53,134 nucleotides of DNA from a virus (IMGVR_UViG_3300045825_000032:1-53134); one strand, 5' to 3'; shown: positions 10,022 through 29,263, numbered from the stretch's first letter. Translations and numbers: made by a program. Notes: generated from the letters alone by a model not told the origin.

Positions 10022-10092
10022 ATAATCTCCATATTCCCCTGTGTCTTCATTATACCAACCTCCCTCTATTTTTGGGATAGCGTCCCATGGGC

Positions 10093-10812: not shown

Positions 10813-11065
10813 AACTTATAACGGACCCCCTTGACCTATGTGGGTACTCTCGGTACTCCATAAAACATCGGTAAACTCCATTCTTTTTAGCTATCCATGC
10901 TTCTTGTTTTACTGTATCCCTACAGTTTTCATGCCATTCCATGTGTTCATTAACATCCTTGGTGAGAGCAACCCCCATCCAAAATCCGGCTGTTCCAAAG
11001 GAAGCAGAACAAAGGATAAGGGTTAGTATATACAAGAAGTCCTGAACCTTACTCTTTAGGCTCAA
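10805..11065 (-). CDS. Hypothetical membrane protein
   Basis: N-terminal hydrophobic helix and operon position. Confidence 0.55.
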   Translation of the reverse strand: MSLKSKVQDFLYILTLILCSASFGTAGFWMGVALTKDVNEHMEWHENCRDTVKQEAWIAKKNGVYRCFMEYREYPHRSRGSVISYD

Positions 11066-11516
11066 GTACCCAGTCCGTGAACTGTTGAGCTACCTCGATT
11101 ACAGTATTAACATCAAGATGCTCAATGTCAGACCGCAATTTAATGTACTCGATAGCATTACTGATACTGGACTGTTTAATGATATACACTTGTTTACGAG
11201 CACGTTCTTCTGGAGTCTCATAGTTACTACCAGTGACTCGTGTAGTGCCTGTAGTTGAGGCAGGAGCACCTGTAGGAGCACTACCATCACTAATAGAGGC
11301 CCATTCATTGTAACCTTGGGCATTCTTGGTCAACTGAACGTCAACTTCTTGTCCTGCCAAAGTTTGTACTTGTTTATAGATGCTAGGATTAGCAAAATCC
11401 ATAATGTTCTGAGTACGGGGTTCACCATTATAGGTGTAAGCTACAATAGCTTTATTGTAACCCTTTGTACCTTTTTTAACGAACTCGTTATTAACACTGT
11501 TAATTGTAATTTTCAA
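11049..11516 (-). CDS. Putative single-stranded DNA-binding protein (TTG start)
   Basis: Beta-rich N-terminal half. It lies between the polymerase and the exonuclease and has its own strong promoter. Function is inferred. Confidence 0.4.
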   Translation of the reverse strand: MKITINSVNNEFVKKGTKGYNKAIVAYTYNGEPRTQNIMDFANPSIYKQVQTLAGQEVDVQLTKNAQGYNEWASISDGSAPTGAPASTTGTTRVTGSNYETPEERARKQVYIIKQSSISNAIEYIKLRSDIEHLDVNTVIEVAQQFTDWVLEPKE

Positions 11517-12235
11517 AGTTTAATTTCCTTCATTTCTAGTTTGTTCATCCCATACTGCACTTCGCAGGACAGGGGTAGTTTAAATTCATAGTCGAAGACT
11601 TGTTTACATAGTTTTGGTACATCTTCGATTGCTTGTTTTAAAAGCATACTAATATTATACACGTTTTTCTCTGGTGTGTCAAGTACTATCGAGTCATGGA
11701 TGGTAGAAATCATTAGAGCTTCCATACCAGACTCACGTAGTAGCTTTCTAGCTTGTAAACGTGCAAGCATAACCAAGTCTGCACCGAATCCCTGAACTGG
11801 ATAGTTTTTAATAATTGTCAGGGGCCACGGCTCAGTCTTGTTGTAGTCAGGGGTTATGGGATAGTGTCTCCCACTTGGGATAGTAAGCTTCCCTTCTTTT
11901 TGGGCGGTACGGAGGAGTTCTCCGTGCCATCGCTGGATTCCTTTATATTTAGAGTAATACTCGTCAATAATGCCTTGCCAGAACTGGACAGACTTAGATA
12001 CGTCTTGAAAGTCTGCATCGTTTGCATAAGAGTATGCGCTTCCACCGTAGATAAGTCTGAACTTAAAGATTTTAGCAATAAGTCTTCCTTGTTTCCCTTC
12101 ACCGAGTTTAAATCTATCACGATTTGCTTCATGTATATCTACCTTGTCAATAATTTCTTGGCACAGAACTTCATCCCCGGATAGCTCTGCGGCTACAACG
12201 ACCTCTAGCCCTTTTACGTCAGCGTTAATTAGTAT
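11513..12235 (-). CDS. Family A DNA polymerase, C-terminal catalytic part (probable ATA start)
   Basis: The frame is open upstream of the track ORF and contains motif A (NADVKGLE), motif B (RLIAKIFKFRLIYG), NYPVQG and motif C (HDS). An in-frame TAG lies at 12248-12250. Confidence 0.88.
   Translation of the reverse strand: MLINADVKGLEVVVAAELSGDEVLCQEIIDKVDIHEANRDRFKLGEGKQGRLIAKIFKFRLIYGGSAYSYANDADFQDVSKSVQFWQGIIDEYYSKYKGIQRWHGELLRTAQKEGKLTIPSGRHYPITPDYNKTEPWPLTIIKNYPVQGFGADLVMLARLQARKLLRESGMEALMISTIHDSIVLDTPEKNVYNISMLLKQAIEDVPKLCKQVFDYEFKLPLSCEVQYGMNKLEMKEIKL
11654..11682 (-). promoter_or_regulatory. Sigma70 promoter inside the polymerase CDS
   Basis: Exact TTGACA-N17-TATAAT. Confidence 0.85.
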
Positions 12236-12413
12236 TATTGTACTCCTCTATAAAACATTCTGCTTCCGCATCTGAATCATTTTCTTGAAGAATATATAAT
12301 TCCATTATCCAAAGTTTATTTATAGTATCAAGATATTTCTCTGCCGGGTTAGCTTTATACCATTCTATATCTTGAAATTCTTTTTTCCATCTAAATGAAA
12401 CAAATTTAGTCAT
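12225..12413 (-). CDS. Small hypothetical protein between the polymerase halves
   Basis: AT-rich 62-aa ORF overlapping both halves. Confidence 0.6.
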   Translation of the reverse strand: MTKFVSFRWKKEFQDIEWYKANPAEKYLDTINKLWIMELYILQENDSDAEAECFIEEYNNTN

Positions 12414-13590
12414 ATCTTGAGATTAAAAGTTGGTCAACTTGATTTCCAAAGTTCTGCATATTGGGATTACTACTGGATAATCGACCAGTTCTAGCCACTA
12501 CCTGATTATACTGTCCATGTAGAAACTCACCCCATCCCATCTTGTCTAGGAGTTCAGGAAGCTTCCCAAAATAAGTATCCATCAGTTTAGCTAACTCTGC
12601 TCGTTCCAATAGCAACTCAATAATCCGTCTATGTTCCTTTGTGGGTTTCTTTAATTGTTTTAGTACCCCTTCATTAGTTTCATAGATAGTAATTTCCTGA
12701 ATACTTCCGTCTGGTAAAGCCAGCTTCTTTTTAAGTTTTGTTTCAGTTTTAGGGAGAGGTCTGAACCTCCACCCACATTCATAGATAACAATGTTATGTC
12801 GAACCCGTGTATAAACTTCTCCCTTACGTGGGCCGCTTTTGTAGACTGTCTCTTCTTCTGTGGGTTCATCAATATCTATTTTCCCGCCATATAACAGACA
12901 GCTAAGATGTTGACCGCTGTCGAGATTAATAGCAGGAGTAGGGGAATGCGTGAGAAGCTCCTCTGTAATCGTCTGTAATTTCTTTGCCGTTTCGTTAGCT
13001 TTAACATTACATAACTCCTTATCAAATTTAATTCCATTCCATTCAATCTCTGCAAGAACCAACAAATCTAATCCCATAATCAGACAGAGTTTCTTCTGTT
13101 TCTCTGTCATTACCTCTTGCTGTTTGAGATAGAGTTTGTAGGTAAGGTCTACATCGAGGTCATTGTAGAACTGCAATTCAGTTACAGGAATGTCTGGAGT
13201 ATCTATCCCAAGGGACCAATACTCGGCAATTTTATCATCTTTGGAACCTAGTTCATACTTCGCAAGGCACTCATTAAGACTAGGATAAGTGCTCGTTTGA
13301 CCGGAGATAATGAACTCCGCCAGTTGGCAATCCCAGATGCGAGTTTTATCAGGTGGTACTATCCCATGCCTGCGAACCCATGTCAGGTCAAATTTAAGAT
13401 TAAATCCTACTACCAGACTTGCTGACTGCATTTCGAGACGTAGCTCATGCAGGAAGTCCGGGGCATCATAATAGTTAAATGATGGTGGATTATCATCTAT
13501 CTTCACTGAATAGGACACCAACTTGTTACTCGCCGTAAACGGGTGTCCTTTCAGATGTGTGGTTGTCTCTACGTCAAATGTTAATACAAT
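12406..13590 (-). CDS. Family A DNA polymerase, N-terminal 3'-5' exonuclease/thumb part (probable ATT start)
   Basis: ExoI (FDVET) lies upstream of the track start, followed by GFNLKFD, YNDLD and RTGRLSSSNPNMQN. AGGAGG lies 7 nt before the ATT at 13590. Confidence 0.88.
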   Translation of the reverse strand: MVLTFDVETTTHLKGHPFTASNKLVSYSVKIDDNPPSFNYYDAPDFLHELRLEMQSASLVVGFNLKFDLTWVRRHGIVPPDKTRIWDCQLAEFIISGQTSTYPSLNECLAKYELGSKDDKIAEYWSLGIDTPDIPVTELQFYNDLDVDLTYKLYLKQQEVMTEKQKKLCLIMGLDLLVLAEIEWNGIKFDKELCNVKANETAKKLQTITEELLTHSPTPAINLDSGQHLSCLLYGGKIDIDEPTEEETVYKSGPRKGEVYTRVRHNIVIYECGWRFRPLPKTETKLKKKLALPDGSIQEITIYETNEGVLKQLKKPTKEHRRIIELLLERAELAKLMDTYFGKLPELLDKMGWGEFLHGQYNQVVARTGRLSSSNPNMQNFGNQVDQLLISRYD

Positions 13591-13601
13591 ATTAAAACCT
13601 C

Positions 13602-13700
13602 CTATTCACTTTTAATAAGTTTACATTTTCTGCATTGGTATCTATTCATACCATAACCAGCAGACCCAACATATTCCCAATCATGTTTGCATTCAATCAT
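13602..13700 (-). CDS. 32-aa zinc-finger-like peptide (not in the ORF track)
   Basis: MIECKHDWEY...YQCRKCKLIKSE (CxH...CxxC), overlapping the helicase stop. Confidence 0.6.
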   Translation of the reverse strand: MIECKHDWEYVGSAGYGMNRYQCRKCKLIKSE

Positions 13701-14946
13701 AATTTTCAATGTCCTTAAAACGTGCAATCTCCGGTTCAATCAACACTTGCATACGAGCATGGCGCATATGAGGGATAGTATCTTCATCTCCTAACAATTT
13801 GTTCTTTGAAATGTTAAGGTAGCGAATATACTCTGCACCCTCTGCATGGGTATTACCCATACCTAGAATCCAATCTGCCTCTGCTTGTTTACTGGTCTTT
13901 GCATTAGCTACGTTATCCATAGTAAGCCACTTCTGGCCCTCCGCAGTACCGTCAGCCTGACATACACCAATAACCGGACAATATCGTTTAGCTAGTTCCC
14001 TAGCCCAGATATAGATTGCTCCTAGCCGTAGGTCTTCCCGGTCAGCATCAAAGCCCTTAATCTTGTCAATCTGGTCAAAGACAACAAGACTAGGGTTTAG
14101 TTGCTTACAAATAGCTTCGACTTTGGACCGACCTATTAACGCGTCGTCAACAAGCCGGAATGAATCAGTTGGAAATCCATGTTTGTACCTTTCAGTTGAA
14201 CCCAACAATTGTTCAAGTCGTACTCCGTGGAACCCTTGATGTACACGAAGCATGACCTCAGCACCAACCTGCTCGTTGTTGAACCATATAATCGGGCCAC
14301 GAGTATCAGGTAAATGTTGAAGCATATATGAAACTTCCGATGCAAGGAAAGTAGTTTTTCCTGACTCTGGTCTTGCGAAAAGAAATCCGAAGTTTCCTTT
14401 TCTAAGGCTTCCAAGGCTTTTGTTAAGGCAATCAAGTCTCCATCTAAGTCCTTTATCCTGATATACTTCGTGTAGAAGCTTCTCCAAATCCCCCGAAACA
14501 AACTCGAAATCTTCCGTCGTTTCTGGATTGTCATTGTTTAATTCCTCCAATAGTTCATTAACAGGTGTTAATTCCCCGGACCCAGTACTGAACTTAAAGG
14601 CTGCCTCAGACAGTTTTAAAGCCGTTTTACGGCGTTTAATCTGCTTAAGGATACCTACCCCTAGGGTGGGGTCTATTTGTGTCTCTGAGAGCGTTTTAAA
14701 TAGCTCCAGATAGATTCCTTTATCCACATCAGGGTATGCTGTGAAGAAAGCAGCCTGTAGGTCGTCTAAACTGAAGTCCTGTATGTAATCCCTATGCAGG
14801 GATTGTAACACCTTGTAAACATAATATAGTTCTTTATACTCATCCCTGATATGTTGCAGGTCAATAGAGTCAAAGTAGCTATCGTAGAACTCCCGTCTTA
14901 GTAGGAGTGTGATTAAGTCCCGTTCAGGGACGTATATAGTATTCAT
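13693..14946 (-). CDS. DnaB-like (SF4) replicative helicase
   Basis: Walker A ARPESGKT, VVFDQ, CQA and AEAD motifs. Confidence 0.9.
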   Translation of the reverse strand: MNTIYVPERDLITLLLRREFYDSYFDSIDLQHIRDEYKELYYVYKVLQSLHRDYIQDFSLDDLQAAFFTAYPDVDKGIYLELFKTLSETQIDPTLGVGILKQIKRRKTALKLSEAAFKFSTGSGELTPVNELLEELNNDNPETTEDFEFVSGDLEKLLHEVYQDKGLRWRLDCLNKSLGSLRKGNFGFLFARPESGKTTFLASEVSYMLQHLPDTRGPIIWFNNEQVGAEVMLRVHQGFHGVRLEQLLGSTERYKHGFPTDSFRLVDDALIGRSKVEAICKQLNPSLVVFDQIDKIKGFDADREDLRLGAIYIWARELAKRYCPVIGVCQADGTAEGQKWLTMDNVANAKTSKQAEADWILGMGNTHAEGAEYIRYLNISKNKLLGDEDTIPHMRHARMQVLIEPEIARFKDIENYD

Positions 14947-14995
14947 GTATTAATATATTATATTAATAATATATATTATTATATATTATATATAA

Positions 14996-15024
14996 AGTAT
15001 ATCATATTCCTTTCTATATGTCAA
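14996..15024 (-). promoter_or_regulatory. Sigma70 promoter for the helicase-polymerase genes
   Basis: TTGACA-N17-TATACT with an extended -10 TG. Confidence 0.85.
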
Positions 15025-15060
15025 GTACTGTTACAAATGTTACTTAGCCTGGGGTGATGG

Positions 15061-15453
15061 TTACGTTATCTCGCACAGAGGGGTTATTTTGTTCGCTGTG
15101 TATTCGGAGAAGTTTTTACAGTCGTATTTTTTCCCACAGTATTCTTTTTGCGACCCGTTGCTTTGGACGAATGTTGAGTAGCTTCTGCAAGTTCTGCAAT
15201 CTTGCGTAGTCGGTACTGCGGCAAGGGCGGTGCGGAGTTCATACGTTTTCTCAAATATTTCTCGCCCGATTGGGTATTCCTCACTGCTGACACCGCGCAT
15301 TATTAAGTCGTCAGGCAGGACGGGCGTTATCCCTTCTCTGGTGCTGGAGTGCGACTCTCCTAGCCTTTGCTTACGTACATGGACGATAACAGGAAGTTTC
15401 ACGCATGGAACCCAGCCTCCATTATCCAGCGCCTCGCGCAGTTTATTGCTCAT
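15061..15453 (-). CDS. Hypothetical protein (PGDYG-like)
   Basis: TREG...DLIMRGV..EEYPI..EIFEKTYE pattern. Confidence 0.55.
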   Translation of the reverse strand: MSNKLREALDNGGWVPCVKLPVIVHVRKQRLGESHSSTREGITPVLPDDLIMRGVSSEEYPIGREIFEKTYELRTALAAVPTTQDCRTCRSYSTFVQSNGSQKEYCGKKYDCKNFSEYTANKITPLCEIT

Positions 15454-15863
15454 TTCACTCTCCCTTCTATATCAGAAATGCTTTGTTTGTAACTCTTTAA
15501 CACCCGCTCAAAGTGCGGAAGGCAGGAATCGGTAACAGTTGCACCGAGGTAGTCTTTCGCTGCTTTCATATCCCGCATCGCCTGCTCAAGCAGCTTGTCC
15601 TGAGACTCTGCTTTGCATTGCTGGCAATCGTGCTGCACCCAATTGGTAGCGGTTAGCCAGCCGTGACCTTTATCACATTCCTTGAATACGATGGTGCAGT
15701 TCTTCATTGAAGGCGGAAGTTGCTTCTCAAGTTCAGCAACTCGGGCGCGGAGTTCGTCTATCTCTGCTTCCATGGCGTAGTTATCTTCCTGAATATCAAA
15801 GTCTGGTCCCTTTGAATGTGCTGGCAACCGTTCCGGCCAAGTTTTAATAGTGGTCATGGTCAA
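15450..15863 (-). CDS. Hypothetical protein
   Basis: Coupled ORF within a GC-richer island. Confidence 0.55.
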   Translation of the reverse strand: MTMTTIKTWPERLPAHSKGPDFDIQEDNYAMEAEIDELRARVAELEKQLPPSMKNCTIVFKECDKGHGWLTATNWVQHDCQQCKAESQDKLLEQAMRDMKAAKDYLGATVTDSCLPHFERVLKSYKQSISDIEGRVK

Positions 15864-16108
15864 TCCTTTGGGAGAAAATGCAACTTCATTCCAAGTGGCA
15901 ATTCTTTTGCTGAATACAAGCCAACGACAACTCTCGCCAATGGCTCATTTTCAAGAACAATTCCAATCGGCTCACCAACCCGCTTGATGTAGTCCTGAAT
16001 GGCTTTGGCGTAGCAGGCGGCTCCGTATTCGTGCATATGGTCATGCGAGAACGACAAGTTATCCGCATAATCACCCATATCTGCTGGCGGCAATTCTGGT
16101 AAGTTCAT
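15860..16108 (-). CDS. Hypothetical protein
   Basis: RBS-led ORF within a GC-richer island. Confidence 0.55.
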   Translation of the reverse strand: MNLPELPPADMGDYADNLSFSHDHMHEYGAACYAKAIQDYIKRVGEPIGIVLENEPLARVVVGLYSAKELPLGMKLHFLPKD

Positions 16109-16830
16109 GTTAAATACTCCTTAATTTGTTGAACACTATATTCCTTTGGGTCTTTCTCTGTTCTTATCCATCGGACAGGATGTTTAAGAAACGTCTGTAA
16201 ACGTGCAACTTTTGCTGGTAATAGTGTATATTGGTCGTCATCCAACCATAAAGTCACAGGTCTTTTTTCCTTAATTAACAGTGTTAATGCTAGGTCATGT
16301 ATATGTGTCCCAAACAGACATAATGCTTGAGTAACCTGACCTACCTTGTGAGCAGAAATCAGGTCCTCAACCAGCACGATGGGAAGGTCGGTCCTTGTTC
16401 CAATTAATTCTACATACTTGTGCCCATCACCCCAGAATCTCCACTTTCTTTTTTCTTTCGTCTTGTCCATTTCAAGGGACCTGCCGATGGAGAACCTGAT
16501 GGGGTTTCCAAAGGTGAGTACAAGCCTGTTGTGGGCTGGAGAATAGCCGGTGTAGGGCTTCCAGTAGGAGTAGGGGAGTCCATACTGGAGGAGCCACTTC
16601 CATCCCTCTGGGGGAATTTCTCTGGTGAAGTCACTAGGTAACACAGCTTTTTCATCATCTGGTATCCTTTCTTTAAGTTTGAAACGAGAGGAATGAGGAG
16701 GTAGTCGATGAAACCCACAACTAAAACAGTGAGAAGAACCATCATTATAAATAGCAAGATTATCTCCAGACCTATCCCGCCCATTAGCAATACATCTTGG
16801 ACATTCATCATATTTTAGAAACTTTGCCAT
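16105..16830 (-). CDS. DNA primase (zinc ribbon plus TOPRIM)
   Basis: CPRC...HCFSCG, LVEDLIS and WLDDD motifs. Confidence 0.85.
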   Translation of the reverse strand: MAKFLKYDECPRCIANGRDRSGDNLAIYNDGSSHCFSCGFHRLPPHSSRFKLKERIPDDEKAVLPSDFTREIPPEGWKWLLQYGLPYSYWKPYTGYSPAHNRLVLTFGNPIRFSIGRSLEMDKTKEKRKWRFWGDGHKYVELIGTRTDLPIVLVEDLISAHKVGQVTQALCLFGTHIHDLALTLLIKEKRPVTLWLDDDQYTLLPAKVARLQTFLKHPVRWIRTEKDPKEYSVQQIKEYLT

Positions 16831-16832
16831 GA

Positions 16833-17261
16833 TTACCACTCATCATCACTACCCTCCTCATCCCCGTTATAGAAAGCCAAGTAGGTATTAATCTCTTCTT
16901 CTGGCAGGAAACGATTATATGTAGTTACCAAATGACCAGTGTTAGCATTCTTAAACTCTACCATAGGAACCCAACCAGACTCTAACAAGTAGTCCTGTAG
17001 AATCGGATATTGCTTTGTACCATTAGCACCATAACTTGATACTAGGGAGCATTGGAGTAGATACCCCCCGCCCGAATACTGGTTATTCCCACTAACAATA
17101 TCTACCACATAGTCTATGAGCGTTTCTTCAAACTTGGTACTATTCCATTTAGGAGGTATTACTTTATCAAGGAAGGTACCATACTCCTCATTAAAGTTCC
17201 CTACTTGGATAATCCCACAACAATTATCATCAATACCAGCATAAAATCTAATATTATTCAT
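16833..17261 (-). CDS. Hypothetical protein with NCCG motif
   Basis: ORF in operon. Confidence 0.6.
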   Translation of the reverse strand: MNNIRFYAGIDDNCCGIIQVGNFNEEYGTFLDKVIPPKWNSTKFEETLIDYVVDIVSGNNQYSGGGYLLQCSLVSSYGANGTKQYPILQDYLLESGWVPMVEFKNANTGHLVTTYNRFLPEEEINTYLAFYNGDEEGSDDEW

Positions 17262-17463
17262 TATCTTCTCCTTCCTCTACATCACTAAAATCTTCCATGT
17301 CAATCGCTTCTGTAGCTTCCAAGTCTTCCCGTGTAACTACAGGAATATCAGAGGATACATCACGGAAGCATCGGTTACACAAATCAATGAATTCTCCAGT
17401 GACTCCATGTTTGCGGGTACTTTCAAAATCATTAAGGTTTTTATCACAAGCAACACAGCGCAT
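17254..17463 (-). CDS. Small zinc-finger protein
   Basis: CxxC...CxxC with an acidic tail. Confidence 0.7.
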   Translation of the reverse strand: MRCVACDKNLNDFESTRKHGVTGEFIDLCNRCFRDVSSDIPVVTREDLEATEAIDMEDFSDVEEGEDNE

Positions 17464-18167
17464 TATACAAGTCCTTTAATAATAGCATTAGCATAACTAT
17501 CCAGAGTCTCTCCCATCAGCCCCGGATTAGCATTAACCTCAAGCAGAATCAATCTATCTTGCTGCTTGTTATAAATAATATCCACAGCACCAAGAGGGTA
17601 ATCCAGCGCTTTAACTGCTTTGAGGGCCAAGTCCCGTAGTCCGTTAGGCTCTTGAATGTCTCCACGGCAAAAAATATAACCATTAGCAAGATTGCGAATC
17701 CGAGTATCCCGTGTATCATCGAAACTCCTTTTCTTTCGTTTCTCTTGAACATCAATCACAGTCCCATTCAGGATATGCACCCGATACTCAAACTTCTTCT
17801 TAGTATATTTCGTGTACAAGGGAGCATTCACCAACTCTTCCCGAGTCTTAGCAAATACAATTCCCTTTCCCTCACTAGACCGAAGTAGAGTACGACAGAC
17901 AACCTGAACTTCTTCTCCAAGCCAAGTAAGAGCAGTCTCGCGGCTATCCGTCCATTCCGGAATCGGTAGCCCCGCCACAGCAAACTTACGGAATTGTGTA
18001 AGCTTATCTGTCCCCCTAAACAATTGGAAAGCTTTACGCCCTCGTACTCGTTCAGGAGATACACGCCAAACCTTGTAACCCAGCTTGGCACTCATAGTTT
18101 CCGCTAGTTCTTTAGCGGCACGTGACCCCATATTATTGGGGACTAATACAATTTTCTTAGTGGACAA
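17463..18167 (-). CDS. ATP-grasp ligase (RimK/glutathione synthetase-like)
   Basis: DKL, EYRVH, AVDII and LLEVNANPG motifs. Confidence 0.85.
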   Translation of the reverse strand: MSTKKIVLVPNNMGSRAAKELAETMSAKLGYKVWRVSPERVRGRKAFQLFRGTDKLTQFRKFAVAGLPIPEWTDSRETALTWLGEEVQVVCRTLLRSSEGKGIVFAKTREELVNAPLYTKYTKKKFEYRVHILNGTVIDVQEKRKKRSFDDTRDTRIRNLANGYIFCRGDIQEPNGLRDLALKAVKALDYPLGAVDIIYNKQQDRLILLEVNANPGLMGETLDSYANAIIKGLV

Positions 18168-19497: not shown

Positions 19498-19498
19498 A

Positions 19499-20701: not shown

Positions 20702-21308
20702 ATTGATGAATCTCCATAGTTTGTTCACAATTACGAAGGGCATCTTTAATTTCAGTAAGGAACATATTCCCAGATTTATTTAATTCGATTCGTCCAAGGT
20801 GCTGAAGGACCGACCCAACAATCTCCTTAAATACACAGATACCAAAGGGTGTTATTGCAATACTAGGTGAGATTGCATAGCAATTAAATTTTCCTACTGT
20901 TTCCTTAAAAGGAAGAGCCTTCTCATACACAGGTAAGAGACTAGAAAAATCAATATGCACAGGATTAAATCCTCTCTCTGTTACTTTATATGCACGCATA
21001 TTAGCAGAACATACTCCTCGTTTAAATTGACGACTGGCGTGGCGTTCCATAAAAAACAACCCGTCAGAAGTATTGTAGAAAGCAGAGGCCGGAGGAAGGA
21101 ACTCAAATCCAATCTCTCGTGCAATATCAGCATTTACCTGATACTTAGTTCCCTTTTTATCGGAAAAGCTCACAGTTTTTTCCTCTTGGTCAATATGCTC
21201 CAAGAGAGCAAGGAACTTACGAGTTCCATCCACAGTATAGAAACCAAAGGTTCCTTCATAGCGCTGACGGAAATCAGCAGATGTTGCTGAGAAGAATTTC
21301 TCAAACAT
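20688..21308 (-). CDS. Hypothetical protein within the ligase cluster
   Basis: GGAGG precedes the ATG at 21308. Confidence 0.65.
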   Translation of the reverse strand: MFEKFFSATSADFRQRYEGTFGFYTVDGTRKFLALLEHIDQEEKTVSFSDKKGTKYQVNADIAREIGFEFLPPASAFYNTSDGLFFMERHASRQFKRGVCSANMRAYKVTERGFNPVHIDFSSLLPVYEKALPFKETVGKFNCYAISPSIAITPFGICVFKEIVGSVLQHLGRIELNKSGNMFLTEIKDALRNCEQTMEIHQYEKT

Positions 21309-22089
21309 GGATAACCTCCAATCCAAATTTAGATACCATTTCTTGAGCCAATCGTTTATCATTATTGTTAATTGTGTTGACGATGCTATCTCGATATTCA
21401 TCGAAAGGAAACTGTGCTTCCACAGCAGAGATTGCTCGTTCTGTATTTCTCCATACCCATTCAATCAAACGATCGTCAAAAATCCAGAAGTTTGACAGAG
21501 TACGATACTCAAGGCCATAAGGCTTATACCGGACTGCTCCAGCTTTACCATACAACAGCTTGCGTTTGTCGCCTTTGTCCATTAGGACCGACCCAATTCC
21601 TAGGTGCATATCCATAGCCTTACCTAATTGGTCTGCATTAACAGTGTTAACATCCTCCAAACCAATATGAATGTGTCCCCCACAAGAGCGAAGAGTTTTA
21701 TCTTCTGCCTCTGGTCGAGGATTCTTCTTACCCGTCCAAACATTGTAATCAGGGTCACAGCCAAAATTCAAGGCCGCATCCGATTGCAATTCAGATTCAG
21801 GGAAAGAAGCAGCACTCTCATTAATAATCTGGAAACCATAACGGTTTTTGATTACTCCAGAGAGGAAATCCAAGGTGGATTTAATATGACTAACATATTC
21901 TTCTGCACCAGATGCAGGAGGAATATTGAATTCCATAGCCACATTATCTTCCTGAACAGCAAATCCCTTCCCAAGTGGAAGGTCCAGAGGAAATGCCTTA
22001 CTACCACCAATCAAACCCACAGAAGATTTGAGATTACCCTGCAAATCCGCCATGAATACTTCTGGGTCACAGCCAAGTTTAAATTTCAT
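21301..22089 (-). CDS. phiEco32-like COOH-NH2 ligase type 2
   Basis: LGCDPEVF, QEDNV, FGCDPD, GGHIH and EYRTLSNFW motifs. Confidence 0.88.
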   Translation of the reverse strand: MKFKLGCDPEVFMADLQGNLKSSVGLIGGSKAFPLDLPLGKGFAVQEDNVAMEFNIPPASGAEEYVSHIKSTLDFLSGVIKNRYGFQIINESAASFPESELQSDAALNFGCDPDYNVWTGKKNPRPEAEDKTLRSCGGHIHIGLEDVNTVNADQLGKAMDMHLGIGSVLMDKGDKRKLLYGKAGAVRYKPYGLEYRTLSNFWIFDDRLIEWVWRNTERAISAVEAQFPFDEYRDSIVNTINNNDKRLAQEMVSKFGLEVIHV

Positions 22090-22450
22090 ACACCTCACCC
22101 TTTCCTTTGTAAATGTAAATGGTTAATCGACGCGGTTTACTTGGATAATTCGGATTACTAATCACCGGACTCTGATGAATCAAGTACTCAGAAAATCCTA
22201 AAGTCTCCAATTGTTTTTTTGCAATAGGTTGCATATCTGTTAGAATAAAAATCAATGTGGTATCAGAGATTTTTAATAGCTCCAATAACTCCAACCAAGT
22301 ATTAACTCTTGGAGCATCAATTGGTATCTCAAAAATATTATAACCCTTTGGAATAATCTGTACATCTGTATAGACCTTCTCAGAAAATACACTAATAATC
22401 ATGTTAACCGTTCCAATACATAATATGAAGTTTACAATCGGTATCCTCAA
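22079..22450 (-). CDS. Hypothetical protein
   Basis: ORF in operon; start uncertain. Confidence 0.5.
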   Translation of the reverse strand: MRIPIVNFILCIGTVNMIISVFSEKVYTDVQIIPKGYNIFEIPIDAPRVNTWLELLELLKISDTTLIFILTDMQPIAKKQLETLGFSEYLIHQSPVISNPNYPSKPRRLTIYIYKGKGEVYEI

Positions 22451-22751
22451 GAGTTACCACCACTTTTTCTGCATCTTTGGTAACATCCTCTGGAGGATAT
22501 AGTTTTGGAGGTACTTTATCTGGTCCCCATATGGTATCAGGGTCTTCAGTTACTCCTAAAATTCGATTTATCTTTTGGTATACCTCTAAACTATGACCAA
22601 CAGTGAGACTTCCACAACAATTTGAAAGACTCCCATAATCGAGTAGTAATCCGAAAGGAACTTTCTTCCTTTTCTTATAACCATGTAAAGTTATAGCACT
22701 CCTCTGATTAAATTTTGCTAAGATATCCTCTACTGCTTTGCGGTTTGACAT
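22404..22751 (-). CDS. Hypothetical protein with NCCG motif
   Basis: ORF in operon. Confidence 0.55.
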   Translation of the reverse strand: MSNRKAVEDILAKFNQRSAITLHGYKKRKKVPFGLLLDYGSLSNCCGSLTVGHSLEVYQKINRILGVTEDPDTIWGPDKVPPKLYPPEDVTKDAEKVVVTLEDTDCKLHIMYWNG

Positions 22752-23389
22752 AGGCGTTCCTTCATAGTTTCAAACACATACTGAGTAGCCTCAGTCCGTC
22801 CATCCATCATTTCAGGATGCCATTGGATAGCGAATCCTTTTACATCTTTGAAATAGACATACTCAGGTTCGTGCCAATCAGGACTTGGAGGAGTCCATAC
22901 TTGGTCGTCTTTATAAATATAATGAGAACTCAAGTTATTGGGTAGCCAAGCCAATAGCTCGTGGTTTGTCTTCTCCAATCCTGCCATCATTTGATGGTGA
23001 ATAGAGTTTGTGCTGAAGGACCGACCATTAACAGTGTTAACTGTGTGTCGCCCACCATGACCGCGTACATCTTGGATAAGATAACCACCAGCCAAGGCAC
23101 ATAACATTTGAGCACCACGACAGATACCAATGATAGGAATACCCATCTCTTTAGCACGTTGCATCAAGTCCCACTCAGCATGGTCCCGTGTAGGATAAGG
23201 ATAAGTAGACTTGGATTGGGGATGCTTATAGGTCCACGTACCAATGTCTGACCCACCCCATACTACCAACATGGAATCCTTTTCCTTCAAATCCTCTGGC
23301 AATCGTGCTGTAACAACAATCTTAACCAGAGCATCAAAGGGATGGGCATCCCCACCACTAAGCGCACTATATAGAATTTTTGCAATCAT
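22730..23389 (-). CDS. Class I glutamine amidotransferase / peptidase C26 (PuuD-like)
   Basis: GG.DI, GICRGAQ, NSIHHQ and QWHPE motifs. Confidence 0.9.
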   Translation of the reverse strand: MIAKILYSALSGGDAHPFDALVKIVVTARLPEDLKEKDSMLVVWGGSDIGTWTYKHPQSKSTYPYPTRDHAEWDLMQRAKEMGIPIIGICRGAQMLCALAGGYLIQDVRGHGGRHTVNTVNGRSFSTNSIHHQMMAGLEKTNHELLAWLPNNLSSHYIYKDDQVWTPPSPDWHEPEYVYFKDVKGFAIQWHPEMMDGRTEATQYVFETMKERLCQTAKQ

Positions 23390-23679
23390 ACAGGCAAGAT
23401 TCCTTCCTTAGAAATTTCTTTCAATGTCATTTCCCCTGCTGGGCGAATACCAGAACGATATGGTTTATAGGCTACCACTTCCATCCCCGGATTCCATTCT
23501 GTTAACAGTGTTAATGCACCATCAACAAACTTTTCATCCACTTCATACAGACGAGGAGTACCCCCATCATCAAAACCAACCTTATCTGTTGTAATGTAAT
23601 GACAATGCCGGTCAAGTCCCTCCAAATAGGTTTCCGCCCTATTGTTAGGAGTGTTAATCAGAATCAATACTTTAGCCAT
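23386..23679 (-). CDS. Hypothetical protein
   Basis: AGGAG RBS followed by ATG. Confidence 0.65.
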   Translation of the reverse strand: MAKVLILINTPNNRAETYLEGLDRHCHYITTDKVGFDDGGTPRLYEVDEKFVDGALTLLTEWNPGMEVVAYKPYRSGIRPAGEMTLKEISKEGILPV

Positions 23680-23680
23680 T

Positions 23681-24022
23681 TTACGCTCCTATAAAACGAA
23701 GTTTAGTTTCATACGTCTTTGCATACATAGTCTGCCCAGCCGCATTCCTTTTCTCCAGCTCTACTGTAATGTATGCTGGAAGGGACCCTTCGGGTCCTCC
23801 TCTTGTCCATGTTACTTTATCCAAGTCCCTTTCAATGTTAGAGATACGACCATACACACGATTCTTCTTTGGTTTCTTGAACACAACCCGCTCCCCTACT
23901 TTAAGAACACAGCGGTTTAGGTGATGTTCCAACCGTGCCTTCCTACTCTCTAAGGTAAGCAGACCGGAGGAGTTCTGGGTCAGGTCCAGAGCCTTCGGTT
24001 TGAGCAGTTGTGTTGTTATCAT
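23681..24022 (-). CDS. Hypothetical protein (SH3/KOW-like)
   Basis: LKVGERVVF...GRI pattern. Confidence 0.55.
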   Translation of the reverse strand: MITTQLLKPKALDLTQNSSGLLTLESRKARLEHHLNRCVLKVGERVVFKKPKKNRVYGRISNIERDLDKVTWTRGGPEGSLPAYITVELEKRNAAGQTMYAKTYETKLRFIGA

Positions 24023-24386
24023 ATTTCTTTTCTTCCTCAGTTAGTTGACGCATATCATCAGGACAACGCCAAATTAAAGTACTACCGCGACTGAACCTAT
24101 CACCCAATACCCGAAGCCCCAAAGCTTTTGGAATTTTACGAACAGGGTCAATCTCAGCATCATAATGTAACTCTTGAATGTATTCCACAATATATGTAAA
24201 TGGTTCATGCCCTATTACATTAGGGAGCATCCTAAGAGTAACCTTATCCCCTATCTTGAAGGATTGCTTTACCGTTTCAATCCATCGAGAATAAACCAGC
24301 TTCCCCCAAGTAAGGTCTTCCAAGGTTCGTGTAGGTAAAGGTGCAGGGAGCATCCTAGGATGTTGTTGGTGGATGTGATTATACAT
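23943..24386 (-). CDS. Hypothetical protein
   Basis: FKIGDKV pattern; start revised to follow the upstream ORF. Confidence 0.5.
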   Translation of the reverse strand: MYNHIHQQHPRMLPAPLPTRTLEDLTWGKLVYSRWIETVKQSFKIGDKVTLRMLPNVIGHEPFTYIVEYIQELHYDAEIDPVRKIPKALGLRVLGDRFSRGSTLIWRCPDDMRQLTEEEKKYDNNTTAQTEGSGPDPELLRSAYLRE

Positions 24387-24399
24387 CCCCACTACCTTA

Positions 24400-24588
24400 C
24401 TAACAAACGACTTGTAGGGTTTCCGTAGTTCTTGTGTAATCATAGTTATTAACAGTGTTAATGAAAGCGTCTTCCCCGCTGGAGATATTACGCAGTTGAT
24501 GGGGTGCAGGACCGACCTTCTGTGGACCCTTTGGCATTTCGTGACACCAATCGCAATCCTGCATAATACAATGTTCACAGTGTTTCAT
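24400..24588 (-). CDS. Small Cys-rich protein
   Basis: CxxC...CxxC with an ATGA overlap. Confidence 0.5.
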   Translation of the reverse strand: MKHCEHCIMQDCDWCHEMPKGPQKVGPAPHQLRNISSGEDAFINTVNNYDYTRTTETLQVVC

Positions 24589-24863
24589 GATGGGTCTTTC
24601 TTAGTGGAGACAAGGGCAATACTTGGACTAGTCCCTTGTCGTGGTTCAAATGATATACTCAAATGATTACAAATACGATTAATCATTTCAATCGCAGTCA
24701 TTTTAAAACGAGTATCATGGTAACACATACCACTATACCCATTCCAGTCACCTACATAAGTCTTAGAGGCATAACTAAGCTCTACCACCTTTGCCTCTAA
24801 TTCCCTATAGGAAGTTTTAAGAGATTCAAACTCTTTTCTAGAAACTAATCCAAACATACTCAC
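24585..24863 (-). CDS. Hypothetical protein
   Basis: Coupled ORF. Confidence 0.55.
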   Translation of the reverse strand: MSMFGLVSRKEFESLKTSYRELEAKVVELSYASKTYVGDWNGYSGMCYHDTRFKMTAIEMINRICNHLSISFEPRQGTSPSIALVSTKKDPS

Positions 24864-25162
24864 TCCTTCGGAAGAAAATACTTGGTGCTGAAATCAAAGC
24901 TACCATGATGCCAGCTAGGGCTATCATTAGCTTCAGCAATCCGCGCCAATTCTTTTGGCAGATAGCGCAGAGGTAGCACCTTAACCGGTGCTTTAGAGGC
25001 CATGATACGGCCCGTATTGCGACAGTAATTATCTTTCTTACTGACAGGGGTGAATTGAACATCCACTTGTCCTACCTGTTCAGTATTTCCAGTGACCTTT
25101 ACGGTAGCACCACCTTTTTCCTCGTGATAACTCCGCAAATGAAAATAACGTATAACTTGCAT
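24860..25162 (-). CDS. Hypothetical phage protein
   Basis: RBS and S.KDNY.R..GR pattern. Confidence 0.6.
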   Translation of the reverse strand: MQVIRYFHLRSYHEEKGGATVKVTGNTEQVGQVDVQFTPVSKKDNYCRNTGRIMASKAPVKVLPLRYLPKELARIAEANDSPSWHHGSFDFSTKYFLPKE

Positions 25163-25171
25163 GATTAATCC

Positions 25172-25543
25172 TTACTTAATAAAGTTTTTCAATTCCAGCA
25201 ACAGCCATACTTTTGGAGCAAACCAAACAAGTAGCATATTGTTTAGATTATAGAGAATGAAAGGAACTCCGCATACTAAAGTGATTCCCCCCCCAAAGAG
25301 GGTAGCAGCACCACGGTCCACAGAATCTTTTATCTGTTTGACACTGCGGGAAGTTAGAATAAATCCAGCAACCAAGATAAAAATACCAACCAAAACCCAG
25401 AGGATTGTGGCTACCCTACCAAAAGCAAGGTACTGTAAGGCAATATCAGGTAATTGTTCAAGAATAAATGTTCCTGTTGTTTGAATACTACTTTGAATTG
25501 CATTGAGAATAGCTACCAGTTTGTTTTGTAAAGTTTCATTCAT
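25172..25543 (-). CDS. Membrane protein
   Basis: Two to three hydrophobic helices and an AGGAG RBS. Confidence 0.65.
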   Translation of the reverse strand: MNETLQNKLVAILNAIQSSIQTTGTFILEQLPDIALQYLAFGRVATILWVLVGIFILVAGFILTSRSVKQIKDSVDRGAATLFGGGITLVCGVPFILYNLNNMLLVWFAPKVWLLLELKNFIK

Positions 25544-25569
25544 TTCATTACTCCTATTAACAGTGTTAA

Positions 25570-26055
25570 TTAATCGTCTGAGGAACTAGAACTATCGCTA
25601 GAACTAGAATCAGACCCGCTATCCCAAGACCCAGAGGAACCACCACCAGCACCATCGCCACCACCACCAGATTGAAATGATGGTGTATCATCCGGTGGCG
25701 TGTAGGACCGACCTTCTGAATGATGATGTAGTACTTCATCCACTAATGCACCCACTACCATACCAGTAACAAAATCATTATTAGATGATTGTACTGGTAC
25801 AGGAGTTGGTTCTGGTACATAGGGTCTGGGTCTAGACACCACCCTACGGGGCTTGTCTTGGGCTTTATCTGGGGCCAGTGTGGGCTTATATGGAGTCAAT
25901 CTCCGCACTTGCTTAACACCCCCAAGTTTTGTGGGCAATGGCAATGGAATGTTCTTTTTCTTTTCTTCCTCAATACATCGCATAGTCTCACGATGTTTAA
26001 GGTAGATACCACACCCCACGCAGAGCAATAGAAACAACACAATCAATTCAAACAT
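25570..26055 (-). CDS. Membrane-anchored protein with a Ser/Gly/Asp-rich tail
   Basis: N-terminal TM helix, Pro-rich linker and low-complexity tail. Confidence 0.65.
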   Translation of the reverse strand: MFELIVLFLLLCVGCGIYLKHRETMRCIEEEKKKNIPLPLPTKLGGVKQVRRLTPYKPTLAPDKAQDKPRRVVSRPRPYVPEPTPVPVQSSNNDFVTGMVVGALVDEVLHHHSEGRSYTPPDDTPSFQSGGGGDGAGGGSSGSWDSGSDSSSSDSSSSSDD

Positions 26056-26056
26056 T

Positions 26057-26416
26057 TCAAACTCCTTTCTTAATTAACTGAACATCTTTCAACACACCAG
26101 TCTCACCATCAAAGATGGCCTTGATGTTTGGACCAGCCCCCGTAGGGTATGCACCACCGAGGTGGAGATAAAGAGTCTGAACAACATCAGGCTTTGGCTC
26201 AGGCTTGATACGATAGGTTTCTGAAATATTCCAAGTTGGACTATTCCTAACAACATCTCTCCAATCTCCACCAGAACACTGGTACTGAATCTTAGCACCA
26301 TCAGCCCATGCTTTAATCAATTCAGCATGAACATGGGGAGGATTGGGATAACCCTCTTTGCATCCCACATCATGCCTCTTTGCTTGGTCGCCGGTGAGTT
26401 GAATACATTTACACAT
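26057..26416 (-). CDS. Hypothetical phage protein
   Basis: HAELIKAWADGAKIQ...YRIKP pattern and an RBS. Confidence 0.65.
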   Translation of the reverse strand: MCKCIQLTGDQAKRHDVGCKEGYPNPPHVHAELIKAWADGAKIQYQCSGGDWRDVVRNSPTWNISETYRIKPEPKPDVVQTLYLHLGGAYPTGAGPNIKAIFDGETGVLKDVQLIKKGV

Positions 26417-26600
26417 GATTAACTCCTTTAATTAACACTGTTAACTGCTTTGCCATAGCTTGAGTCGATGGTCGGTCCTTACTTCCATGTGCCGGTCGAA
26501 TGTTACCGGAATGAATCAATACCTCACGAATAGCATTATCGGTACGACTGGGCAATGGTTTTTTGCCCGCATGACGATTGTTCAGATAGAAATGTTTCAT
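26409..26600 (-). CDS. Small basic early protein
   Basis: AGGAG RBS followed by ATG. Confidence 0.55.
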   Translation of the reverse strand: MKHFYLNNRHAGKKPLPSRTDNAIREVLIHSGNIRPAHGSKDRPSTQAMAKQLTVLIKGVNHV

Positions 26601-26758
26601 AATACAACTCCTTGTTTAAGTTTAAAATCCTCAACAGCACACTCAAGATAGATACGACGAGGGAATATTGAGGCAGCTCCAATAGTATTGTAGCCCTTCT
26701 CATATATTCTAACTCGTTTACTCAAGTAAGAAAATGGAATATGAATAGAATCACTCAT
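26597..26758 (-). CDS. Small early protein (53 aa, not in the ORF track)
   Basis: MSDSIHIPF...KQGVVL, coupled to neighbours on both sides. Confidence 0.5.
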   Translation of the reverse strand: MSDSIHIPFSYLSKRVRIYEKGYNTIGAASIFPRRIYLECAVEDFKLKQGVVL

Positions 26759-27041
26759 GCTCTTCTTCCTCTTCTTCAGTTACTTCCGTGTCAAACTCAC
26801 CTCGTATTAGTCCTGCAGTATACTCCCGATGTAGAACTTGCCAAAAGATTGCCCCTTGTGGGGTAGAACTAAAGGACATAGAATCAGACAAATCTCTCGC
26901 ATCCAAATCCAGATTGTTTGGATTCCTCTTATCATAGAGTACCCTTTTTAAAGCTGTAAACAATTGAGCTTTAGAGATACTGGTTATGTGTGGTGACACA
27001 TTCCGAAACAACCTTGATTCCACAATACTAGGTTTCTTCAT
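26751..27041 (-). CDS. Early protein with an acidic tail
   Basis: GGAG RBS and F..TPQG..FW pattern. Confidence 0.6.
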   Translation of the reverse strand: MKKPSIVESRLFRNVSPHITSISKAQLFTALKRVLYDKRNPNNLDLDARDLSDSMSFSSTPQGAIFWQVLHREYTAGLIRGEFDTEVTEEEEEEHE

Positions 27042-27066
27042 GTTAATTCTCCATTAACAGTGTTAA

Positions 27067-27267
27067 TTAAAACCAGAAGGCCATTGGAGAACGAAGACAT
27101 AGTGGTAAATCCCAGTATCTTTTTGGACATTGAAGATGAAAACCACCAGCACCCACACCCCAATTAATAGGGATAAATCCCCATTTATAGAAAGTCCATT
27201 GCCCCCTATCTTGTCCTTCAATCACCAATGTATCCCAATTGGAGAAGCAGTATTTAATCTTGTTCAT
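27067..27267 (-). CDS. Small early protein
   Basis: AAGGA RBS followed by ATG. Confidence 0.5.
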   Translation of the reverse strand: MNKIKYCFSNWDTLVIEGQDRGQWTFYKWGFIPINWGVGAGGFHLQCPKRYWDLPLCLRSPMAFWF

Positions 27268-27279
27268 GATGGTCGGTCC

Positions 27280-27390
27280 TTATTTCATCCAAATAATCTT
27301 CACACGCTTGGAAGAACCTTTGATTTCCTTCGCAACACGATAGGTAGAAACACAGCCAATCTCACGGGAACCACGGAAAATGTGATACAT
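27280..27390 (-). CDS. 36-aa early peptide (not in the ORF track)
   Basis: MYHIFRGSREIG...KIIWMK preceded by AGGTG. Confidence 0.45.
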   Translation of the reverse strand: MYHIFRGSREIGCVSTYRVAKEIKGSSKRVKIIWMK

Positions 27391-27477
27391 ATTAACACCT
27401 GTTAATTAAGTTAAACAAAATAGAATACATCGGAATGATGCACCCCAATATGCCTACATAATAGGCATATGGTGATG

Positions 27478-27594
27478 TTATCGCCCGTACAAACGATTAA
27501 AGAATCCATCTTTAGTTTTCTGTGGCACACAGCAAAACGATGGGTAATCCTCATGATAGAGGGTTAATAAAGCCTGATATTGTGCATCACTCAT
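27478..27594 (-). CDS. 38-aa early peptide (not in the ORF track)
   Basis: MSDAQYQALL...RLYGR preceded by AGGGGA. Confidence 0.45.
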   Translation of the reverse strand: MSDAQYQALLTLYHEDYPSFCCVPQKTKDGFFNRLYGR

Positions 27595-27644
27595 GTTATC
27601 CCCTTTAAGATTTTCATATCATACCTTTCATTTAATTAACAGGG

Positions 27645-27761
27645 TTAACGGGCCAGCGCATAAGGTCGGTCCTTATTTACCCAACTATACAACTTGGGGT
27701 TAGCCTCCATCATGGCGCAACGTACAGCATACCGCCATAGATTTATTTGCCCGATAGTCAT
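27645..27761 (-). CDS. 38-aa early peptide (not in the ORF track)
   Basis: MTIGQINLWRY...KDRPYALAR preceded by GGAGG. Confidence 0.5.
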   Translation of the reverse strand: MTIGQINLWRYAVRCAMMEANPKLYSWVNKDRPYALAR

Positions 27762-27788
27762 GGGATAACCTCCAAAAAGTATAGACGT

Positions 27789-27814
27789 AAAAAAGCCCGC
27801 ACTAGGCGGGCTTT
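27789..27814 (-). terminator. Intrinsic terminator after the first early gene
   Basis: AAAGCCCGC-N5-GCGGGCTTTTTT on the minus strand. Confidence 0.85.
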
Positions 27815-27849
27815 GTGTTAACAGTGTTAACTGTTAAGTTAGTGTGCGC

Positions 27850-28446: not shown

Positions 28447-28716
28447 TTTAAATACTCCATTAAAGCAAAGGGCTATTTGATACAAGGTAAGCCCAATAAA
28501 CCTGTTAACAGTATTAATTGACTAATTCAAAAAACACTTACTAACAGGGAGATTGTGCCATAGGTAAATGTAACGTGCGTGTAACAAAGGTAACAATGTG
28601 TAACGCTATTCGGGCATTATTCATGACCTAATTACATCACACTAACCTTACACGAACCTTACAACCCTACTGCCATTAGGGGTATTATTCTAGGGGTTTC
28701 CGCCCGTGTTTTTTGA

Positions 28717-28750
28717 CTGTATAGGCATACAGTACTGTGATTAGATACAG
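28717..28750. promoter_or_regulatory. Tandem LexA (SOS) boxes
   Basis: CTGTATAGGCATACAG and CTGTGATTAGATACAG (both CTGT-N8-ACAG), 2 nt apart. Confidence 0.7.
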
Positions 28751-29158: not shown

Positions 29159-29263
29159 TATATATTATATTATATATTATTAAATACAATCCCTTTAGGG
29201 ATTGTATTATATATATTATATATTAATATATTATATATAATAATATATATTATTCTTATTATA
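29159..29263. other. AT-rich tract with a 12-bp inverted repeat (candidate replication origin)
   Basis: TATAT-type repeats surround AATACAATCCCT-TT-AGGGATTGTATT (29183-29208). Confidence 0.45.

Follow-up and report, generated by a model that had tools for sequence, protein, structure and literature searches.

Networks of dispersed operators have mostly been described in temperate phages and plasmids, in which a recognisable repressor silences the element. Short palindromes that are read by dimers and that are scattered, often within genes, over a large DNA domain are also found in host chromosomes, where MatP with its matS sites and SlmA with its SlmA-binding sites (SBS) are examples with species-conserved readers. 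The passages on Cluster A mycobacteriophages in two published accounts describe more than 20 stoperators of 13 bp that are distributed genome-wide, many of them in short intergenic spaces, that are thought to halt elongating host RNA polymerase and that differ, together with the repressors, between subclusters (PMC9283540, PMC6550527). Stoperators are described there as asymmetric, read by a two-domain monomer and active in one orientation relative to transcription (PMC9283540), and the phages as temperate, with an integrase or a parABS system (PMC6550527). The KorB OB sites of plasmid RK2, as far as the relevant part of the source goes, have a 13-bp palindromic core, TTTAGCGGCTAAA, with a central G or C, occur in several dispersed copies and silence promoters at a distance (PMC11790492). 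Here we describe a dispersed palindrome, TTAACASTGTTAA, in IMGVR_UViG_3300045825_000032, a complete virus genome of 53,134 bp with direct terminal repeats, which was analysed over its whole length (the window) and whose bearer is referred to below as the window phage.

As listed in the original prediction, which was made from the sequence alone, the window contains 11 exact copies of TTAACASTGTTAA, three copies with one mismatch (19052, 27636 and 28505) and two 14-bp variants with a 2-nt centre (14558 and 27392); all of them were recovered in our scan (Table 1). Not one exact copy appeared in 100 dinucleotide-preserving shuffles, and at one mismatch or less there were 14 matches versus a shuffle mean of 0.10. 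In an unbiased word count TTAACASTGTTAA tops the over-represented 9- to 12-mers of the genome. Together with five two-mismatch copies there are 21 sites, all of which are located at 9.2–28.8 kb. They lie within an arm of minus-strand genes (gene block at approximately 5.3–28.5 kb; arm taken as 5.3–29.3 kb), which makes up 45% of the genome. The plus-strand genes start at approximately 29.8 kb and continue, wrapping round, to approximately 5.1 kb; this structural arm, for which only the absence of exact copies had been predicted, has zero copies even at two mismatches (arm-restriction P = 3e-6 for 16 of 16 sites). The gaps between sites (3067, 1717, 2777, 1384, 1202, 1390, 474, 947, 1108, 875, 622, 338, 244, 182 and 687 bp) tighten toward the promoter-proximal end, a gradient that may be due in part to the many short intergenic gaps among the small early genes.

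Table 1. Positions of the palindrome copies and of predicted signals and the first leftward gene in the 53,134-bp window (ORF, open reading frame).
Feature	Position	Strand	Context
Exact copy	11491..11503		9 nt past stop of ORF 11513-11776 (polymerase A C-terminal piece); at start of ORF 11049-11516
Exact copy	16275..16287		Within primase-like gene 16105-16839; LTLLI; variable segment
Exact copy	20436..20448		Within amidoligase gene 19499-20743; INSVN; residues differ in orthologs
Exact copy	21638..21650		Within COOH-NH2 ligase gene 21301-22098; VNTVN; variable loop following conserved HIHIG
Exact copy	23028..23040		Within peptidase C26 gene 22730-23389; VNTVN; adjoins copy of second word GGACCGACC (23018-23026)
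Exact copy	23502..23514		Within ORF 23386-23679 (97 aa, no relatives found); LTLLT
Exact copy	24449..24461		Gene ambiguous, ORF 23943-24578 or ORF 24400-24588; ATG 5 nt downstream; LTLLI
Exact copy	25557..25569		Fills gap from stop of ORF 25570-26055 to Shine-Dalgarno site/ATG (25543) of ORF 25172-25543
Exact copy	26432..26444		15 nt upstream of ATG 26416; overlaps 3' end of ORF 26409-26600
Exact copy	27054..27066		Fills gap from stop of ORF 27067-27267 to Shine-Dalgarno site/ATG (27041) of ORF 26751-27041
Exact copy	27818..27830		19 nt past stop of first early gene; 3 nt before terminator stem
One-mismatch copy	19052..19064		Within GATase gene 18157-19497; INTIN
One-mismatch copy	27636..27648		Holds stop codon of 38-aa ORF 27645-27761; next ATG 41 nt downstream
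One-mismatch copy	28505..28517		5' leader, 58 nt upstream of ATG 28446 of first early gene
14-bp variant (2-nt centre)	14558..14571		Within DnaB-like helicase gene 13693-14946; LTPVN
14-bp variant (2-nt centre)	27392..27405		Ends 1 nt before ATG 27390 of 36-aa ORF
Five two-mismatch copies	starts 9243, 12785, 16942, 23645, 28758 (span 9243..28770)		From scan at up to two mismatches
First leftward-operon gene	27850..28446	-	198 aa, all-helical, no family; positional reader candidate
Rho-independent terminator	27786..27814	-	9-bp GC-rich stem and U-run, directly past copy 27818; stretch dG -21.3 kcal/mol, z = -3.7
Leftward sigma-70-type promoter	29258..29286	-	Perfect, 12/12, with TG; would drive motif-bearing arm
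Rightward sigma-70-type promoter	29375-29403	+	Perfect; diverges from 29286-29258
Internal leftward sigma-70-type promoter	14996..15024	-	11/12, with TG; upstream of helicase
Internal leftward sigma-70-type promoter	11654..11682	-	Perfect; ~150 nt upstream of copy 11491

Gene boundaries are the site of five of the 11 exact copies (27818, 27054, 26432, 25557 and 11491) and of the near copies 28505, 27636 and 27392. The copies at 25557, 26432 and 27054 adjoin Shine-Dalgarno sites, as had been noticed before, with the ATG 13, 15 and 12 nt downstream, respectively. The first early gene is bracketed by copies 28505 and 27818, the latter being overlapped by a partial copy, TTAAC-A-GTTAA, that starts at 27827. 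That the copies are promoters was considered and rejected, because the start codon follows just 12–15 nt downstream and the words of the relatives are unlike promoter hexamers; restriction or modification sites were rejected as well, since no phage methylase was found and sites of this kind are, as a rule, avoided and not enriched.

The other six exact copies are intragenic. The predicted coding peptides VNTVN, INSVN, LTLL (as LTLLT or LTLLI) and LTVL (read at 26432) were found again, but INTVN is not in the frames translated. Although the copies in genes are thus translated, the four exact copies in genes with orthologs are read in two frames (VNTVN twice, INSVN and LTLLI) and are always found in a variable loop beside conserved residues, and seven relatives carry unrelated residues where the intragenic copies fall. 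This argues that the word is selected at the nucleotide level and not as a peptide.

Relatives were gathered by their helicase, and 80 of 198 related stretches from the viral collection were compared, together with 20 whole related records. The nearest cultured relatives, with approximately 40–50% protein identity, are Alcaligenes phage vB_Af_QDWS535 and the Methylophilales phages MEP401 and MEP402 (Zobellviridae in the record); a megablast search of the early arm against phage records gave no match. Exact TTAACASTGTTAA was found in none of the 80 helicase-centred loci and in none of the 20 whole records, and single one-mismatch matches were found in 2 of the 20, as compared with 3 of 20 for a reversed-pattern control. 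When 22 genomes were subjected to a uniform test for palindromes (5-bp arms, gaps of 1–6, 10 shuffles each), however, five were clearly positive, namely the window phage and four of the 21 others, each with a word of its own. The window phage (G000) has 15 copies of TTAAC...GTTAA (shuffle maximum 9), G001 has 13 of TTAAA-N3-TTTAA (shuffle maximum 5), G002 has 15 of TTACA-N3/4-TGTAA (shuffle maximum 8), G009 has 12 of ATAGA-N5-TCTAT (shuffle maximum 5) and QDWS535 has, for the word TCCTAAYRTTAGGA, 11 copies with CCTAA arms and 10 exact 14-mers (shuffle maximum 5). One spacer dominates in each positive genome except G002, which has two. G006 and G014, in which copies cluster at the early end, are borderline cases; G005 is positive in a narrower test (7 versus 4) and not in the pooled one; and G004 may use a degenerate TTAAK-N3-MTTAA. 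In the remaining genomes tested, MEP401 included, the uniform detector found no dispersed palindrome. The trait is therefore recurrent yet patchy.

What is kept among these phages is the layout. In G001 all 13 copies (1.2–18.9 kb) and in QDWS535 all 11 copies (25.2–48.1 kb) lie in the homologous arm, and in G002 12 of 15 do so (25.2–50.8 kb), while two are near the convergence point and one (gap 1) is in the structural arm. The deposited annotation of QDWS535 places one copy 31 nt before the first leftward gene, another right past the stop of this gene and before a terminator-like hairpin, and others in the gaps that separate a stop from a ribosome-binding site; the AGGA of the latter is part of the palindrome's right arm. 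The element of G009 is longer (approximately 23 bp) and likewise brackets the first sizeable early gene, which is thus enclosed by two copies in three lineages (window phage, QDWS535 and G009). The predicted density gradient holds for the window phage and for QDWS535, in which the copies are densest at the early end, but not for G001 and G002, in which the spacing is roughly even. Within orthologous enzymes the positions of intragenic copies differ between genomes, layout and density being retained. Different palindromes in the same layout point to a lineage-specific reader rather than to a conserved host protein that organises the chromosome.

The symmetry of the motif is that of duplex DNA. 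The palindrome grows by one base per side to a 15-bp dyad, R-TTAACASTGTTAA-Y, with a purine at −1 and a pyrimidine at +1 in 11 of 11 exact copies and no conservation beyond these positions. The −1/+1 flanks do not covary as base pairs (A faces C in 3 of 11 copies), and every exact copy has a C:G pair at its centre, which on the mRNA strand reads C in 8 copies and G in 3. The flanks in G001 are symmetric in the same way (R in 13 of 13 copies and Y in 12 of 13), G facing T five times and C never. The bare RNA element has a minimum free energy (MFE) of 0.0 kcal/mol in both phages, and the probability of arm pairing in a context of ±40 nt averages 0.34 (range 0.00–0.79) over the 11 copies of the window phage and 0.25 in G001; a stable stem-loop in the transcript, tested by folding, is not formed by the element of the window phage. 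Symmetric flanks that do not covary, a C:G centre that can be turned either way and the lack of a stable RNA fold favour duplex DNA read by a symmetric dimer, in keeping with the dimeric binder that had been proposed from the dyad alone.

Of the systems described above, the Cluster A stoperators come closest, having in common with the window phage approximately 20 dispersed sites and lineage-specific words; the sites of the window phage lie in part at gene boundaries (5 of 11 exact and 3 near copies) and in part within genes (6 of 11 exact copies), and none overlaps a predicted strong promoter. They are, however, dyad-symmetric and confined to one arm, and no integrase, ParB or recognisable repressor was found; they do not belong to the stoperators because these are asymmetric and orientation-dependent, read by a monomer and found in temperate phages. 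A 13-bp palindrome with a G/C centre in dispersed copies is shared with the OB sites of KorB, but the KorB/KorA system of RK2 has a ParB-family CTP-clamp reader and serves plasmid partition and regulation, whereas the window phage gave no ParB_N in six-frame searches and has a different sequence and a lytic-type arm. The network thus resembles stoperators or KorB sites and is a member of neither. The likeness to matS or SlmA sites put forward in the original prediction, which is one of dispersal and symmetry, was not supported: matS and SBS belong to host chromosomes, whereas the present sites are in a 53-kb phage, are confined to one arm, are placed at gene boundaries in its promoter-proximal 3 kb and have different words in sister phages.

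We consider it about evenly probable that the palindromes are duplex-DNA docking sites for one lineage-specific dimer, which would form a multi-operator or roadblock network over the early and middle arm. Host RNA polymerase would initiate at the consensus promoter at 29286-29258 and travel leftward; the accumulating reader would fill the intercistronic sites in the first 3 kb and then the sites that follow every 1–3 kb; and the bound dimers would either block the passage of the polymerase or nucleate silencing. Transcription of the early and middle arm (host takeover, amidoligase and replication) would then be damped or shut off, while the site-free late arm would be spared. Since the promoters are of the sigma-70 consensus type and no sigma factor was found, a DNA-bound roadblock would act on the RNA polymerase of the host. 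What was observed is the sites with their enrichment, arm restriction, symmetry, placement and turnover between relatives; binding by a protein, the nature of this protein and any influence on transcription are inferred.

Several results weigh against this reading. No copy overlaps any of the predicted strong promoters, and therefore classical operator action is not indicated. The trait is patchy, only 4 of the 21 other genomes being clearly positive. The elements of QDWS535 and G009 could fold as RNA (arm-pairing probability 0.70 and 0.83, respectively; MFE of the bare QDWS535 element −3.5 kcal/mol), and in G002 the spacer is 3 nt in 6 copies and 4 nt in 8, a freedom that would be unusual if the dimer is rigid. 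As to the reader, Pfam and PHROG scans of approximately 45 arm proteins recognised enzymes and no regulator or DNA-binding family, 30-odd arm proteins being without any hit; six-frame searches of the genome detected no HTH_3, RHH_1, HTH_17, LexA_DNA_bind or ParB_N; and clustering of ORFs by presence and absence in 20 genomes revealed no protein family that tracks the palindrome. For the 198-aa product of the first leftward gene, Foldseek gave no match in the PDB at E ≤0.001 (best E 0.47), a VIA wide search led only to generic helical bundles (best Z 7.2), and there was no detectable homolog in the related genomes compared. Finally, G010 has a homolog of the first-gene protein of QDWS535 and yet no dispersed palindrome.

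The 198-aa protein is nevertheless the reader candidate by position. It has 8 homologs (49–77% identity), the loci of which were not found in viral or metagenome contig collections, and its AlphaFold model is all-helical with basic disordered segments, at a pLDDT (predicted local distance difference test) of 75. A symmetric homodimer is predicted for it, with a score of 0.80 as against 0.00 for the best of 3 controls, and the runs share at least 83% of contacts at a pLDDT of at least 75; 20 of 30 proteins solved as pairs, and 1 of 23 solved as single chains, reached the mark for this score. A search of the ESM Atlas gave a best score of 0.84, to unnamed clusters. Because the protein has no known fold and cannot be aligned with the first-gene product of QDWS535, and because of the exception presented by G010, we regard it as a doubtful candidate for the reader. 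It is encoded in a part of the genome that varies strongly: 14 of 16 early ORFs are without a relative in approximately 100 related loci. A 119-aa early protein (26057-26416), the sole early ORF with several relatives, gave no lead in the PDB or to a family and was set aside. In the clustering a RusA-like resolvase occurred in 3 of 6 palindrome-positive and in 0 of 12 negative genomes, the other rows being mostly antisense artefacts. This Holliday-junction resolvase (9665-10123) is, among the 20 genomes, common only to the window phage, G002 and G009, which all bear palindromes; three other positive genomes are without it.

A possible reader of the same word was met elsewhere. When the viral collection was scanned for the 15-bp form, at least 117 stretches were hit, mostly with single chance matches, but the identical core ATTAACASTGTTAAT is present in 2, 3 and 5 copies in three unrelated viral contigs (L107, L143 and L194, respectively), directly upstream of a small gene. 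The product of this gene (79–98 aa) has a LexA-type winged-helix domain (LexA_DNA_bind, PF01726, above cut-off). The arrays are found between the genes for the small and the large terminase (L194 4661-4782, L107 3897-3953, L143 1992-2004), and the G+C content of L107 and L143 is 51–53%. In these contigs ATTAACASTGTTAAT is plausibly read by a dimeric winged-helix protein and can thus serve as an operator; the protein is possibly a regulator of the packaging site or of late genes, the arrays being its operators. Whereas these are tight arrays in unrelated phages, the copies in the window phage are dispersed over 19 kb. A profile of the three LexA-type proteins found nothing in six-frame translations of the window phage (best E 5.3), G001–G005, G010 and QDWS535, and PF01726 itself had 0 matches in the window phage.

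One alternative is an element that works in RNA, as an intercistronic hairpin or tag for an RNA-binding protein or a ribonuclease in processing, early-message decay or the coupling of termination to reinitiation. It would explain why promoter-proximal copies fit exactly into the space from a stop codon to the following ribosome-binding site, sometimes containing the stop, and why an arm of the QDWS535 palindrome holds AGGA; a hairpin loop would also tolerate the 3- or 4-nt centres of G002. The folding in QDWS535 and G009 and the two spacers of G002 keep this explanation in play, weakened as it is by an element that does not fold by itself in the window phage and G001, by flank preferences that are symmetric and not complementary, by a centre that is C or G on the mRNA and by 6 of 11 exact copies deep within genes, where they have no obvious use for processing or coupling; we consider it unlikely. 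Alternatively, the sites may be read as DNA for a purpose other than transcription, such as genome organisation, replication, recombination or segregation, in the manner of matS or SlmA sites or of ParB/KorB-like loading. Many copies are indeed intragenic and approximately 1–3 kb apart, density seems more important than exact place since positions in orthologs are not conserved, origin-like AT-rich tracts occur in the same arm, and the architecture parallels that of the OB sites as far as these are described (13-bp palindrome, S centre, about a dozen dispersed copies; PMC11790492). However, the searches detected no ParB_N, integrase or other gene for maintenance; the divergent control region is central, so that replication should be the same for both arms, and yet the sites are in one arm only; and gene-boundary placement and the bracketing of the first gene with its terminator look transcriptional, all of which makes a non-transcriptional role improbable in our view.

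The reader could also be encoded by the host or a prophage, for example as a LexA-type winged-helix protein, through which the phage would sense or exploit the state of the host. This is suggested by the absence of a recognisable reader among the phage proteins and by the identical word before a LexA_DNA_bind gene in L107, L143 and L194. But the relatives keep the layout with unrelated words, which a co-evolving phage-borne reader explains more easily, and operators for a foreign repressor ought to be lost from a lytic phage, so that a foreign reader appears, if anything, slightly more improbable still. Copies might furthermore be short recombination linkers at cassette boundaries by which small early genes are shuffled, which would make them a minimal form of the promoter-plus-stem-loop cassettes known from T4-type phages. 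The early region is hypervariable and copies do lie at the boundaries of its ORFs, but with just 13–15 bp conserved, six exact copies inside genes and the dyad symmetry left unexplained, linkers are very improbable. The docking-site reading can be taken further: in Zobellviridae-like podophages that are apparently virulent, a self-encoded, fast-evolving dimeric 'arm silencer' with no known DNA-binding fold, possibly the first early product, would use a private palindromic code, repeated approximately 15–20 times over the early and middle arm, to time the switch from early to late genes by roadblocking host RNA polymerase. In this full form the proposal is speculative and, on present evidence, quite unlikely.

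With respect to lifestyle, six-frame searches of the genome found no integrase, ParB_N, Sigma70_r2 or any of three DNA methylase families, and therefore the phage looks virulent and reliant on host RNA polymerase. ParB_N (PF02195) had 0 matches in the whole record, the control being positive in 11 of 14 genomes, and of the temperate traits Phage_integrase, ParB_N and HTH_3 were absent from the six frames, the L5 repressor family and serine recombinases not having been searched for. The minus arm begins, in the order of transcription, with the 198-aa ORF and the terminator, followed by approximately 15 small family-less ORFs and then by enzyme modules. Its distal genes encode primase, DnaB-like helicase, a split family-A DNA polymerase, 5'-3' exonuclease, the RusA-like resolvase, phosphoesterases and ribonucleotide reductase. 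The entire phage family retains a phiEco32-like module, here at 17463-23389 (ATP-grasp, class-II GATase, amidoligase, COOH-NH2 ligase and peptidase C26). The gene for the family-A DNA polymerase is fragmented: the exonuclease and the first part of the polymerase domain are at 12406-13521 and the last part of this domain is at 11513-11776, with small ORFs in the interval; the relatives have the polymerase as two genes, and the extra breaks may be either real or assembly errors.

The plus arm opens with tRNA-Trp, a probable small terminase, an HNH protein and the large terminase. The tRNA-Trp gene (anticodon CCA, 29557-29631) is the first past the rightward consensus promoter and is the sole match of the genome in an Rfam scan. 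At the end of the structural arm there is a 1347-aa ORF (84-4127), with 23–32% identity in relatives and only a weak GNAT-like stretch (residues 375-431), and next to it a phage lysozyme gene (4124-4564). The first gene is separated from the leftward promoter by an untranslated leader of approximately 800 nt (28447-29257) without an Rfam match, which contains an 11-bp inverted repeat (29183-29208), a C-rich run at approximately 28880-28900 and four GTTAC(A/C) repeats at approximately 28560-28605. Tracts of alternating A/T repeats are located at 14950-15050 and 29150-29300, each just downstream of a consensus leftward promoter, and have equivalents in QDWS535 (~31855-31890 and ~48500-48550) and in G009 (~2390-2480 and ~19130-19250). 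Such paired tracts may serve as replication origins that are activated by transcription.

A second dispersed word, GGACCGACC (often AAGGACCGACC), occurs in 12 copies at 10589-27672, also in the leftward arm only. The copies start at 10589, 14125, 16386, 18191, 20807, 21585, 23018, 24509, 25705, 26470, 27271 and 27664, and there are 11 matches at one mismatch or less versus 0.53 expected. The word is asymmetric and found in both orientations, seven copies being antisense to the mRNA; two sense copies stand just before an ATG, at 27271 (a real gene start) and at 27664 (inside the 38-aa ORF). Cognates are TGACCGACC in G001, AAGGTCGATCAT in G003, G005 and QDWS535, AGGTCTATCAAC in G006 and G007, and GGACTATCAAC in G014, so that the word and its cognates look like a family-wide signal.

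We found no paper that mentions the palindrome of the window or the word of QDWS535, and the main text of the paper on the MEP401 group has no mention of palindromes, inverted repeats or promoters. The signature of a dispersed operator network is found here in a phage without lysogeny genes or a recognisable regulator; it is confined to the arm that needs to be switched off late, and the layout is kept while the word changes between relatives. Since Alcaligenes phage QDWS535 is in culture and has the feature clearly, the question is directly testable. If a protein binds, the sites would show how gene expression is ordered in a widespread group of freshwater and marine podophages that depend on the RNA polymerase of the host, and the protein would probably represent a new DNA-binding family. 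And if the arm-silencer proposal is true, the lineage-private words could decide the outcome of co-infection by sister phages, as a lytic analogue of immunity groups.

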